From the IMG/VR virus record IMGVR_UViG_2778261454_000004: a DNA stretch of 4,372 bases, one strand, 5' to 3'. Of the stretch, positions 284-4,372 are shown one piece after another. The translations under genes and the position numbers were made by a program. This stretch comes from a virus (Duplodnaviria > Heunggongvirae > Uroviricota > Caudoviricetes). Under the pieces are notes generated by a model. That model was not told where the DNA came from and ran no database searches. It saw only the letters and a program-made list of their open reading frames with translations. How positions within the stretch are numbered: the stretch's first letter is position 1; the number at the start of each line of letters is the position of its first letter.

Positions 284-499
284 ATGAAATCCATGGATAA
301 GTTAACAACGGGCATCGCCTACAGCACCTCTGCAGGCAGTGCTGGCTACTGGTTTTTACAGTTGCTCGATAAAGTCACGCCCTCACAGTGGGCGGCAATA
401 GGTGTATTGGGTAGTCTGGTATTTGGCATGCTGACGTATCTGACAAACCTTTATTTCAAGATTAAAGAAGACAAGCGTAAGGCTGCATGGGGAGAGTAA
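284..499 (+). CDS. essQ: Class II pinholin, phage 21 S-type, 71 aa with dual start (antiholin from ATG 284, holin from ATG 293)
   Basis: Translation [71 protein letters not shown]. Two predicted TMDs: a Gly/Ala/Ser-rich SAR-like TMD1 and a hydrophobic TMD2, then a charged C-terminal tail. The Met-Lys-Ser-Met N-terminus is the classic holin/antiholin dual-start motif. GGAGG at 267-271 sits about 12 nt upstream of ATG 284. The listed ORF 191-499 begins at an in-frame TTG; 284 is the first ATG. The Qin-paralog symbol is inferred from the neighbouring cspI/ynfN/gnsB/ydfO context, not from a search. Confidence 0.85.
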
Positions 500-503
500 T
501 TCA

Positions 504-818
504 ATGACTCAAAAATATGAACTGATTGTGAAAGGGATCCGCAATTTTGAGAATAAAGTTACGGTAACTTTAGCGTTACGGGACAAAGAACGCTTTGACG
601 GTGAAATTTTTGACCTGGACATCTCGCTGGACCATGTTGAAGGTGCCGCGCTGGAGTTTTATGAGGCAGCAGCCAGAAGGAGCATCAGACAGGTCTTCCT
701 GGATGTTGCTGCCGGGTTATGTGAAGGGGACGAGCTGTTGCCAGAAACGCGACCCTGTTCAGAGGCTCGGTATACCATAAAAATTAACAGTTCAGATAAC
801 TCGATTACGGGTTGTTAG
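504..818 (+). CDS. ydfR: YdfR-like protein of unknown function (DUF1327-type), 104 aa, between holin and endolysin
   Basis: Intact ORF starting 4 nt after the holin stop, with GGGGAGAG (490-497) 6 nt upstream of ATG 504. Acidic, no predicted TM segment. The position between the holin and lysozyme genes matches the Qin-type lysis cassette as I recall it. Function unknown. Confidence 0.7.
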   Translation: MTQKYELIVKGIRNFENKVTVTLALRDKERFDGEIFDLDISLDHVEGAALEFYEAAARRSIRQVFLDVAAGLCEGDELLPETRPCSEARYTIKINSSDNSITGC

Positions 819-873
819 CTTTTTGCAGTTGGCTTTCCAGTATCTTTCATTGGTAGCATCCTGATAAATATCC

Positions 874-1901
<1,028 letters not shown>

Positions 1902-2151
1902 GGTAATATTAAATCGGAACATTTACATCGCGGAATGTAAAATTTAAATAAAAAGGACTCTTCCATGAGCCAAAATTCCTGAAATCTTAAGGGTAAGATA
2001 AAAGGTCTTAATCAGAATGACACGTTTTATTAATAAATAAAGCTATTCTTTCATTGCTGTGTTTTTCTTTACAAAAGTAATCCTTGCTATGGGTGGTTAA
2101 TCATGCGTTAATGGTGTTCTGGTTTGTTACAAATTTATCTGAAGCAGTCAT

Positions 2152-2160
2152 TGTTATAAT
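2152..2160 (+). promoter_or_regulatory. Candidate extended -10 promoter element (TGtTATAAT) for cspI
   Basis: Perfect TATAAT at 2155-2160 preceded by TG at 2152-2153, inside an AT-rich block. It would give a leader of about 95 nt before cspI. A second candidate (TTGCTA 2084-2089, 18-bp spacer, GTTAAT 2108-2113) would give a longer leader. No experimental support. Confidence 0.4.
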
Positions 2161-2262
2161 TTTATTATTTGTACCTCTTGAGATTTCCTTGTTGGTTTTT
2201 CTCTCTGATATTTTTTTCGGACCATTCTGCCCAAGGGCTAATTTCTTCAAAAGGTAATAATT

Positions 2263-2475
2263 ATGTCTAACAAAATGACTGGTTTAGTGAAATGGTTTAA
2301 CCCTGAAAAAGGTTTTGGTTTCATCACGCCGAAAGATGGCAGCAAAGATGTGTTTGTCCATTTCTCAGCAATTCAGAGCAACGATTTCAAAACATTAACT
2401 GAGAATCAGGAAGTTGAATTTGGTATTGAGAACGGACCTAAAGGTCCTGCCGCTGTTCATGTAGTGGCGCTTTGA
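2263..2475 (+). CDS. cspI: Cold-shock protein of the CspA family (CspI), 70 aa
   Basis: Translation [70 protein letters not shown] carries the cold-shock-domain RNP1 (KGFGFI) and RNP2 (VFVHF) motifs. The AAGGTAATAATT-ATG initiation region resembles that of cspA. Preceded by a long AT-rich leader. Confidence 0.93.
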
Positions 2476-2563
2476 GGTAGACAATATTACAAACCATATT
2501 CACTTTAGATGCCCGTGTTGTCATGGTTCCCAGTATAGAACATCATCTTTTGATGTTTCTGAC

Positions 2564-2674
2564 ATGAATCCTTTCGGGGCAAAATGTATCTTTTGTAAAT
2601 CAATGATGATTACATTTGATAATATTTCACAATACTTAAATGCCAGCCGTCTGTCGTTGGATTTAAAAAAGTGA
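2564..2674 (+). CDS. Possible small zinc-ribbon-like ORF or gene remnant; only the ATG-initiated 36-aa part is annotated
   Basis: The frame is open from 2465 to stop 2672-2674 and reads ...CPCCHGSQYRTSSFDVSDMNPFGAKCIFCKSMMITFDNISQYLNASRLSLDLKK, i.e. two Cys pairs (CPCC and CIFC) about 22 residues apart. No ATG, GTG or TTG lies upstream of ATG 2564 in this frame, so the first Cys pair has no canonical start. Below the length cut-off of the ORF track. Confidence 0.25.
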   Translation: MNPFGAKCIFCKSMMITFDNISQYLNASRLSLDLKK

Positions 2675-2679
2675 AAATG

Positions 2680-2702
2680 AAGGCTCCTTCGGGAGCTTTT
2701 TT
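2680..2702 (+). terminator. Intrinsic terminator: GC-rich hairpin with UUCG tetraloop followed by a T-run
   Basis: Stem AAGGCTCC (2680-2687), loop TTCG (2688-2691), stem GGAGCTTT (2692-2699) with one G-U pair, then TTTTTTG; six T at 2697-2702. Lies about 200 nt after the cspI stop and before ynfN. Confidence 0.75.
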
Positions 2703-2820
2703 GCTTGGTGTCTATTCGATGGATACTCACATACTACGGTAACATCATGAAAAAAATCATAGTTTTTTTAACTCTGAACCAGCAGTGGTAGTGCCAGCGA
2801 TGACTGGAGTTAACACCATC

Positions 2821-2976
2821 ATGCGTGAATATCCAAATGGCGAAAAAACACACCTTACTGTAATGGCCGCAGGGTTTCCATCTCTGACCGGAGATCATAA
2901 AGTCATTTATGTAGCCGCGGATCGACATGTTACTTCAGAAGAAATTCTGGAAGCAGCAATAAGGCTCTTGAGTTGA
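2821..2976 (+). CDS. ynfN: YnfN-like small protein, 51 aa (alternative start ATG 2800 gives 58 aa)
   Basis: Translation MREYPNGEKTHLTVMAAGFPSLTGDHKVIYVAADRHVTSEEILEAAIRLLS. Length and position (between cspI and gnsB) match my recollection of the Qin-prophage cold-shock-induced gene ynfN. GGAG at 2806-2809 is 11 nt upstream of ATG 2821. Start choice is not verified. Confidence 0.6.
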   Translation: MREYPNGEKTHLTVMAAGFPSLTGDHKVIYVAADRHVTSEEILEAAIRLLS

Positions 2977-3093
2977 TTTGATGCTATTGCATTGATAATT
3001 CAGGAAAATTCTCTTTGTCTGTTTGTGTAAAATTTAGACTATCGTATGTTGATTATTGCGATGTTTCATCTTATCTTTTACACGTTTGCACCA

Positions 3094-3099
3094 TATAAT
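3094..3099 (+). promoter_or_regulatory. Candidate -10 hexamer (TATAAT) for gnsB
   Basis: Perfect TATAAT at 3094-3099, about 48 nt upstream of the gnsB start. The -35 is weak: TTATCT at 17-bp spacing, or TTTACA at only 11 bp. Confidence 0.3.
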
Positions 3100-3147
3100 C
3101 GACTTACTGTGTAACTGGAAAGTCATAACAGACTAAAAGAGGAAATG

Positions 3148-3321
3148 ATGAATATTGAAAACTTAAAAACAAAAGCAGAAGCAGATATTTCTGAATATAT
3201 AACAAAAAAAATTATTGAACTTAAGAAAAAGACCGGGAAAGAAGTTACCAGTATTCAGTTTACCGCACGGGAAAAAATGACGGGTCTTGAAAGCTATGAT
3301 GTCAAGATTAATTTAATCTGA
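3148..3321 (+). CDS. gnsB: GnsB (GnsA/GnsB family small protein), 57 aa
   Basis: Translation MNIENLKTKAEADISEYITKKIIELKKKTGKEVTSIQFTAREKMTGLESYDVKINLI closely resembles the GnsA/GnsB sequences I recall (MNIEELKK...TGKEVSEIRFTAREKMTGLESYDVKIKIM). AGAGGA at 3137-3142 is 5 nt upstream of ATG 3148. An additional in-frame ATG at 3145 would add one Met. Confidence 0.85.
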   Translation: MNIENLKTKAEADISEYITKKIIELKKKTGKEVTSIQFTAREKMTGLESYDVKINLI

Positions 3322-3347
3322 TGTATTCAATAATAAAATTTATCCAT

Positions 3348-3370
3348 AAACCTCGTTTTTACGGGGTTTT
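3348..3370 (+). terminator. Probable intrinsic terminator downstream of gnsB
   Basis: AAACCTCGT (3348-3356), loop TTTT, ACGGGG (3361-3366), then TTTTGTT. The stem has one G-U pair and is followed by a T-run. Confidence 0.5.
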
Positions 3371-3435
3371 GTTATATTTGAATGGTTCCGAATATCTAAA
3401 TCACAATTGTTGATGGTTTTTATTAAACCAATGCA

Positions 3436-3464
3436 GTCCGGCTCAGGAGTGAGAGAAGCCGGAC
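3436..3464 (-). terminator. Hairpin just downstream of the ydfO-like gene (minus strand); possible weak terminator
   Basis: Perfect 8-bp inverted repeat GTCCGGCT (3436-3443) / AGCCGGAC (3457-3464) with a 13-nt loop, starting 9 nt after the minus-strand stop. The following minus-strand sequence (TGCATTGGTTTAAT) is only moderately T-rich. Confidence 0.35.
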
Positions 3465-3472
3465 GTTATGGT

Positions 3473-3883
3473 TTAGCGTGGTAAGATCTGTGTAGTTTTC
3501 TGGATGCTTTCAGTAAATAGTAATGAATTATCAAAGGCATAGTAATATCTTTTTTGTTCGTGGATATTTGTAACCCACCGAAAAACTCCTGCTTTAGCAA
3601 GGTTTCTTCTGTATTCCTGAAATGTGATCTCTCTGGATTTCAGCTTATTAGAGGTCGTTTCTATAAGATGCCTATCCTTTGAAAATTTGACAGACACAAT
3701 GTTTTTTAGGCCCTTTAATAACACTGTATTATCATTTTTTAATACAATATGAACATTCTCTGTGGCTAAATAGTAAATGTAATGTGAGACATTGTGACGT
3801 TTTAGCTCAGAATAAAACCATTGATAGTTTAAATCGTTTCGAACTTTATCAAATATTTGTTTAAAAATGACTACCTGATCCAT
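3473..3883 (-). CDS. ydfO: YdfO/YbcV-like protein, DUF1398 family, 136 aa, function unknown
   Basis: Translation from [47 protein letters not shown]... matches the prophage YdfO/YbcV family as I recall it. Start set at ATG 3883 because GGAAGG lies 7 nt upstream on the minus strand; the listed ORF start at 3898 has no Shine-Dalgarno. Confidence 0.75.
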
Positions 3884-3940
3884 AGATAAACCTTCCATGT
3901 GATATGAGGGGGCGTAGTCTGCACGATTATCTAAATTGCT

Positions 3941-4174
3941 TCAATCTGGTCTGACCTGTTTTCTGAGCAATTCAGTAATGTCACTCTTTTCTTTGTTTGC
4001 TTCAGGAGAAACTCTTTTTTCTGAGCACAGTCTCCGGCGGCAGGCTTCAATGACCCAGGCTGAGAAATTCCCGGACCCTTTTTGATCAAGAGCGATGTTA
4101 ATTTGTTCAATCATTTGGTTAGGAAAGCGGATGTTGCGGATTGTTGTTCTGCGGGTTCTGTTCTTCGTTGACAT
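3941..4174 (-). CDS. Small basic ribbon-helix-helix (Arc/MetJ/CopG-like) DNA-binding protein, 77 aa; possibly YnfO-like
   Basis: Translation MSTKNRTRRTTIRNIRFPNQMIEQINIALDQKGSGNFSAWVIEACRRRL... shows a basic N-terminal segment (RTRRTTIRNIRF, beta-strand-like) followed by two short helices, the usual RHH pattern. It sits 57 bp upstream of the DUF1398 gene and is co-oriented with it. Fold is inferred, not computed. Confidence 0.6.
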   Translation of the reverse strand: MSTKNRTRRTTIRNIRFPNQMIEQINIALDQKGSGNFSAWVIEACRRRLCSEKRVSPEANKEKSDITELLRKQVRPD

Positions 4175-4321
4175 GAGGTTGTCCCGTATTTAGTGTCGCT
4201 GATTTGTATTGTCTGAAGTTGTTTTTACGTTAAGTTGATGCAGATCAATTAATATGATACCTGCGTCATAATTGATTATTTGACGTGGTTTGATGGCGTA
4301 GATGCACGTTGTGACATGCAG

Positions 4322-4338
4322 ATGATAATTATTATCAT
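4322..4338. promoter_or_regulatory. Perfect 17-bp palindrome ATGATAAT-T-ATTATCAT; candidate operator, Fur-box-like
   Basis: Positions 4322-4338 are exactly self-complementary around 4330. 4324-4342 (GATAATTATTATCATTTTG) matches the 19-bp Fur-box consensus GATAATGATAATCATTATC at 15 of 19 positions by hand alignment. It lies about 150 bp upstream of the RHH gene start. Confidence 0.4.
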
Positions 4339-4372
4339 TTTGCGGGTCCTTTCCGGCGATCCGACAGGTTAC

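Follow-up and report, generated by a model that had tools for sequence, protein, structure and literature searches.

An AUU-initiated YmcF-like gene, ynfQ, downstream of cspI in a Qin-type prophage and its putative CxxC metal module

The window, by which we mean the whole stretch of 4,372 nucleotides that was analysed, represents the late region of a Qin-type lambdoid prophage. The holin gene, ydfR, rrrQ and rzpQ are followed by the cold-shock gene cspI with its long leader and by ynfQ, past which ynfR, ynfN, gnsB and, on the minus strand, ydfO and ynfO are arranged in this order (Table 1). Comparison with E. coli K-12 revealed 98.4% identity over positions 864-4372 and 86% over positions 255-703, the holin region. 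Positions 1-204 are the end of an IS1 element encoding on the minus strand the N-terminus of InsA, itself a CxxC...CxxC finger. This end adjoins the prophage at the place occupied in K-12 and IAI39 by the ynfU side of the region upstream of the holin gene. The IS1-end sequence gave about 82,700 matches in E. coli genomes, while the exact junction was found in only four genomes, at no more than 96% identity.

Table 1. Features of the window with their coordinates, strand and supporting evidence.
Feature	Position	Strand	Description and evidence
Holin gene	284-499		
ydfR	504-818		
rrrQ	874-1407		Lysozyme gene
rzpQ	1404-1901		
cspA-type thermoregulator	2118-2502	+	Long 5' leader and cspI coding region; Rfam RF01766
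cspI	2263-2475	+	70-aa CspA-family cold-shock protein; ORF list, NCBIfam CspG/CspA (E 1e-40), RefSeq
Shine-Dalgarno core GAGG of ynfQ	2474-2477	+	Shares nucleotides with the cspI stop codon; spacer of 8 nt to the ATT; sequence
ynfQ (YmcF-like) CDS	2486-2674	+	ATT start, 62 codons, TGA; RefSeq WP_071524604.1, K-12 b4724, Pfam PF23641
First Cys knuckle, C9-P-C11-C12	2510-2521	+	C9, P10 and C12 invariant
Second Cys knuckle, C34-I-F-C37	2585-2596	+	C37 invariant, C34 at least 90% (34-sequence alignment)
ynfR	2677-2742	+	21 aa, MKAPSGAFLLGVYSMDTHILR; starts 2 nt past the ynfQ stop codon; RefSeq and K-12 annotation
Intrinsic terminator of cspI-ynfQ	2679-2702	+	9-bp stem with UUCG loop (2679-2700) running into T6 (2697-2702)

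Overlapping the end of cspI, a frame with a translation of 69 residues is open from position 2465 to the TGA at 2672-2674 and is bounded upstream by an in-frame TAG at 2462-2464. An earlier note, made from the letters of the window, had described this frame as carrying a CPCC and a CIFC pair, as having no ATG, GTG or TTG before the first pair, as containing a single ATG (2564) that would give a 36-aa product with one Cys pair, as offering two in-frame ATT codons at 2486 and 2498, and as ending 5 nt before a strong terminator. These readings proved correct throughout: both pairs appear in the translation, none of the 15 codons ahead of the first Cys is ATG, GTG or TTG, the ORF list holds 2564-2674 as the sole ORF of the frame with a canonical start, both ATT codons are present, and a stable hairpin begins 4-5 nt past the TGA. 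With regard to the nature of the frame, the note had named a non-canonical start, a gene remnant and chance as options, and it had tentatively mentioned the zinc-binding protein YnfU.

The identity of the frame was established by comparison with annotated genomes. A megablast search found positions 2400-2760 in 2145 of 5426 complete E. coli genomes, in which the features annotated under this segment are cspI, 'ynfQ' or 'ymcF' (cold shock small protein YmcF), ynfR and ynfN. In strain IAI39, the RefSeq CDS WP_071524604.1 occupies locus positions 2587-2775, which at an offset of 101 correspond to 2486-2674 of the window, so that RefSeq places the start at the first in-frame ATT. These positions are 100% identical to K-12 ynfQ (b4724, 189 nt); the gene itself is without any difference, whereas the surrounding prophage differs from that of K-12. 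The product matched Pfam PF23641 (YmcF-like) with 109.9 bits at a gathering score of 27, and its residues 1-62 covered the profile from 1 to 62 of 62. In K-12 MG1655, ynfQ lies 10 nt past cspI and its paralog ymcF (b4723) lies 10 nt past cspG; the two genes share the ATT start, the 10-nt gap behind a CspA-family gene and equivalent downstream partners, which are ynfR, ynfN and gnsB past ynfQ here, and ymcE and gnsA past K-12 ymcF. Searches of two other family collections gave no family in PHROGs for the YnfQ protein and, in NCBIfam, only a sub-threshold match, with 17.8 bits at a cut-off of 37, to the CxxC family ECs_2282. The nomenclature is not uniform: some RefSeq genomes carry WP_071524604.1 under the name ynfQ and others under the name ymcF, and VanOrsdel et al. 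2018 used 'ynfQ' for a different sORF of 37 aa between ydfJ and ydfK. We consider it very probable that 2486-2674 is the known YmcF-like gene ynfQ, with an AUU start, cotranscribed with cspI and encoding a putative CxxC metal module.

The mention of YnfU did not lead to the right gene. YnfU and YnfQ are both small proteins of the Qin prophage with two Cys pairs, and Weaver et al. attribute to YnfU two zinc knuckles of the CPxC type. The YnfU family (NF038384) thus resembles YnfQ in its small size, its two Cys knuckles, its occurrence in Qin-type prophages and its presumed zinc binding, but it differs in locus, strand and family, and YnfU has a canonical ATG start. The K-12 gene ynfU (b4776, 56 aa) is found upstream of the holin gene (essQ/essD), on the opposite strand, and not past cspI, and its site is taken by the IS1 end in the window. 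Moreover, BLASTP gave no alignment between YnfU and YnfQ, and the NF038384 model, which scores YnfU with 79 bits, did not match YnfQ at E values up to 0.01. That the frame encodes YnfU can therefore be given practically no credence.

To follow the start codon and the reading frame through evolution, we fetched 80 of the 277 loci found, one genome per species. The codon aligned with position 2486 is ATT in 60 species, ATG in 16 and ATC in four, so that ATT or ATC stands at the start in 64 of the 80. The ATG codons of Klebsiella, Raoultella, Silvania and Citrobacter sedlakii fall exactly on codon 2486, which gives strong comparative support for a start at this position. An AAGG/GAGG-type tetramer is located 6-8 nt ahead of it in all 75 unique homologous loci. 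As in the window, no in-frame ATG, GTG or TTG occurs between the upstream stop codon and the first Cys in 20 of the 59 unique loci without ATG. The alignment of homologs, which the earlier note had proposed as a check, thus bore out the non-canonical start at ATT 2486, the start annotated in RefSeq and K-12, with ATT, ATG or ATC conserved at this codon together with C9, C12 and C37 (invariant) and C34 (at least 90%). On these comparative grounds, translation of ynfQ is taken to begin at ATT 2486.

A start further downstream, either at ATG 2564 (36 aa, one Cys pair) or at ATT 2498 (58 aa), is very unlikely. The former is the sole canonical start in frame, and the latter is in frame and ahead of both Cys pairs. 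Against the former, the corresponding codon 27 is ATG in just one of 75 unique loci and AAA, CGA, AGC or others elsewhere, and the most conserved part of the protein lies upstream of it. Against the latter, which the earlier note had listed as an alternative, codon 5 shows the variation usual for an Ile/Leu codon (ATT 50, ATC 13, CTC 9, ATA 3) and stands about 20 nt from the Shine-Dalgarno core. In addition, the PF23641 profile begins at residue 1, that is, at position 2486.

AUU start codons are familiar from E. coli. The classic examples are infC, which encodes IF3, and pcnB, and for infC the AUU makes translation inversely sensitive to IF3. These genes have the AUU initiator in common with ynfQ and are unrelated to it in sequence; in ynfQ, as against infC and pcnB, the Shine-Dalgarno core overlaps the stop codon of the upstream gene, suggesting coupling. 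D'Lima et al. 2017 (J Proteome Res 16:3722) reportedly observed both YmcF and YnfQ in a comparative proteomic study of cold-shocked cells, and they are said to have identified the ATT start codons of both by molecular genetics. The part of PMC10191623 dealing with AUU start codons in bacteria cites D'Lima et al. 2017.

The frame carries a clear protein-coding signature. Among 5.8 billion proteins searched, 131 relatives were found, all of them from Enterobacteriaceae or their phages and most of them 62 aa long. In the 80 species, the frame is intact and its length is kept (62 codons in most). For the core codons 2-47 of 74 unique sequences, the Nei-Gojobori method gave a mean pS of 0.78 and a mean pN of 0.11 (pN/pS 0.14), and the median dN/dS of the core was 0.065. 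At third codon positions, variability amounted to 0.38, and the first and second positions reached 0.11 and 0.05. Constraint is far weaker in the C-terminal tail, codons 48-62 (pN/pS 0.64). An alignment of 34 sequences revealed the invariant residues F7, C9, P10, C12, G14, S15, Q16, R18, S20, D23, P29, G31, F36, C37, K38 and M41. This substitution pattern indicates that the core of ynfQ is under strong purifying selection.

It follows that the options of a gene remnant and of chance, the latter two considered in the earlier note, can be put aside. A decaying remnant, or a frame open by chance in the cspI 3' UTR with coincidental Cys pairs, would fit the missing canonical start codon, the length of 69 codons, which alone is not extraordinary, and the lack of annotation in most phage records. 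It does not fit an intact frame of conserved length in 80 species, the low pN/pS of the core, the three-base periodicity of variation, Cys ligands that are invariant or nearly so, an AUG at the same codon in one clade, and a full-length match to a curated Pfam family. Frameshifts or stops in homologous regions, which the note had expected of non-coding sequence, were not seen in any of the 80 species. Strong purifying selection together with the full-length family match effectively excludes both options, for which we see only a minute probability.

The conserved core of the family, HFRCPCCHGSQYR...GAKCIFCK with four ligand cysteines, is present in YnfQ. Its two CxxC knuckles (C9-x2-C12 and C34-x2-C37) have the arrangement on beta hairpins that is expected for a zinc ribbon or rubredoxin-like fold. 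C9 and C12 are the presumed metal ligands of the first knuckle, and C11 is dispensable: it is nearly invariant and replaced by R, H or Y in a few species. The AlphaFold2 model of YnfQ reaches a pLDDT of 87-90 in the core and shows short strands at residues 17-19 and 32-34. Comparison of this model with solved structures yielded, as the best and still weak matches, the zinc ribbons of TFIIE-alpha, IleRS and eL43. The zinc ribbons of TFIIE-alpha and eL43 and the zinc module of IleRS have in common with YnfQ two CxxC knuckles about 21 residues apart that sit on short beta hairpins. A 2026 review (PMC13348028) modelled YnfQ with a rubredoxin-like metal site. The term 'zinc-ribbon-like' used in the earlier note is hence reasonable as a description, with a basis limited to the motif and the weak fold matches. 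YnfQ would fold as a small module in which C9, C12, C34 and C37 are most likely the ligands of a single metal ion, probably zinc; behind this module comes a predicted, poorly conserved C-terminal helix.

The search for a sequence relative of YnfQ with a solved structure found none and matched, with E values of 0.05 or worse, only a short string like Rieske box II. The invariant CPCCHGSQY (2510-2536) resembles box II, CPCHGSQY, of the iron-sulfur subunits of cytochrome b6f complexes. A Rieske [2Fe-2S] protein was rejected as a candidate: the likeness is confined to the box-II-like string, with E values of 0.02-0.2 far below the family cut-offs, and box I is absent. The likeness is probably a coincidence. 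Our best guess, held with low confidence, is that YnfQ binds nucleic acid, the ribosome or RNA polymerase during cold adaptation; it derives from the association with Csp RNA chaperones and from the weak likeness to zinc ribbons associated with nucleic acids.

The organisation of the locus points to joint expression of cspI and ynfQ. The cspA-type thermoregulator was matched by RF01766 with 114 bits (gathering score 78, E 1.3e-29) over the full model, 1-428 of 428, and the match runs into the start of ynfQ. The cspI stop codon is the TGA at 2473-2475; 10 nt separate the two genes, and a promoter scan found no promoter-like site in this gap. As is typical of the family, ynfQ directly follows a CspA-family gene, a like arrangement being found in 52 of 81 loci, and in 50 of the 81 the stop codon of a 70-aa csp falls within the Shine-Dalgarno sequence, leaving a gap of 9-10 nt to the start. 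Past the ynfQ stop codon, the hairpin folds with -14.9 kcal/mol (z -3.2 against dinucleotide shuffles) and runs into its T tract, as expected for a rho-independent terminator, and a hairpin with a T run is located directly past the ynfQ stop in most orthologous loci. Direct folding revealed the plus-strand hairpin at 2679-2702, which a scan for consensus terminators had missed, probably because the stem is extended by A-U pairs that consume some of the T run. The conserved csp-ynfQ geometry and the hairpin past the stop codon indicate that cspI and ynfQ form a two-gene cold-shock transcript. Expression of this operon at 37 °C is very low.

Published RNA-seq data describe concerted changes of these genes. 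Upon AZT treatment, ynfQ was induced along with cspI and ynfN (PMC11228462), and ymcF and ynfQ moved with cspG, cspH and cspI in response to butanol (PMC11728337) and to yaiX overexpression (PMC13058169). We propose that cspI and ynfQ are transcribed jointly from the cold-inducible cspA-type promoter and leader and that this transcript would terminate at the hairpin 2679-2702. The GAGG core 8 nt upstream would direct initiation at the near-cognate AUU 2486. Owing to the overlap of the Shine-Dalgarno core with the stop codon of cspI, ribosomes that complete cspI would be released on top of the ynfQ ribosome binding site. Such ribosomes probably reinitiate at the adjacent AUU, a coupling that may help this weak start to work, and the AUU probably, by analogy with infC, keeps the output of YnfQ low relative to CspI and sensitive to IF3.

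In Salmonella enterica subsp. diarizonae, the Rfam sRNA STnc220 (RF02077, 102 bits) was found at positions 2147-2226 of locus L016, where it coincides with the 3' end of the ymcF homolog and its terminator. STnc220 as an 'sRNA' could represent a piece from the 3' end of the csp-ymcF mRNA. The corresponding Rfam search of the window gave no match to STnc220 at E values up to 0.1.

The type of start codon varies with the position of csp. In the 52 loci with a csp directly upstream, the start is ATT in 47, ATC in four and ATG in one, whereas the 28 loci without such a neighbour have ATG in 15 and ATT in 13; these counts are raw and reflect only a handful of independent evolutionary events. Exceptions exist in both directions, namely Pseudescherichia with ATT and no csp and Citrobacter sedlakii with ATG and a csp. 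In the ATG lineages without an adjacent csp, csp and its leader are found several hundred nucleotides off, or there is no csp within 2 kb. In Klebsiella/Raoultella loci with ATG (L030, L033, L034, L036 and related ones), the sequence GTTGTAGCAAAAAGAGGCTAA, located some 30 nt ahead of position 2001, is similar to the 3' end of csp, and one such upstream ORF ends with ...PAVENVVAKRG. This resemblance suggests that the sequence upstream of these loci is a degraded csp remnant and not an unrelated context.

The close contact of the two frames could also be read as a sign of +1 ribosomal frameshifting towards the end of cspI, which would produce a CspI-YnfQ fusion instead of independent initiation. 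The frame does share 11 nt with the end of cspI, relative to which it is in the +1 frame, and in many species it is open for at least 29 codons reaching back into csp. The length of this open stretch varies, though, from 3 to 94 codons and is thus not conserved, and in the window the TAG at 2462-2464 leaves only three overlapping codons. Furthermore, a well-spaced Shine-Dalgarno sequence is conserved in all loci, and stand-alone copies with ATG and without csp exist. We reject a fusion, whose probability we judge to be negligible, because the upstream stretch is not conserved and because of these stand-alone copies. Returning to independent initiation at AUU, one can speculate that the AUU together with a Shine-Dalgarno sequence inside the csp stop codon is a conserved regulatory device which, in cold acclimation, ties the synthesis of YnfQ and YmcF to Csp termination and to the activity of IF3, with AUG tending to replace AUU upon loss of csp. 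We regard this as possible and rather doubtful, and the link of the AUU start to csp adjacency is offered as a hypothesis only.

The small genes past ynfQ show peculiarities of their own. The first codons of ynfR constitute the terminator hairpin, so that translation of ynfR needs read-through of the terminator; SPA-tagged YnfR was detected after cold shock, and PMC6001520 reports its induction under this condition. RefSeq flags the ORF equivalent to ynfR as a 'too short' pseudogene in strains with about 95% identity. The ynfN gene (2747-2976) is split by a difference of one base in a T run, which is T7 at 2763-2769 in the window and T8 in IAI39. The 76-aa YnfN of IAI39 (MKKIIVFFNSEPAVV...) is consequently frameshifted here as in K-12, for which only the C-terminal part of 51 aa, starting at ATG 2821, is annotated.

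The occurrence of ynfQ is not restricted to prophages, as complete lambdoid phages, among them Tritos, PhiR42_1, 2H10 and mEp460, carry it too. The phage block past the lysis cassette comprises S, ydfR, R, Rz, cspI, ynfQ, ynfN, gnsB and a DUF1398 gene. Its presence in complete lambdoid phages identifies the ynfQ block as a phage-borne accessory (moron) module. In most of the complete phage records which carry ynfQ, the gene is unannotated, presumably because of its ATT start.

Nothing about ynfQ as a gene, about its start at ATT or about its regulation by cold shock is new. With ynfQ present in the K-12 reference annotation as b4724 and its family in Pfam as PF23641, the window contains no discovery in this respect. 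It represents a calibration case, in which a reading of the raw sequence spotted a genuine protein-coding gene without a canonical start codon, and genes of this kind, such as ynfQ, are still missed by standard gene finders. [quoted passage not shown]
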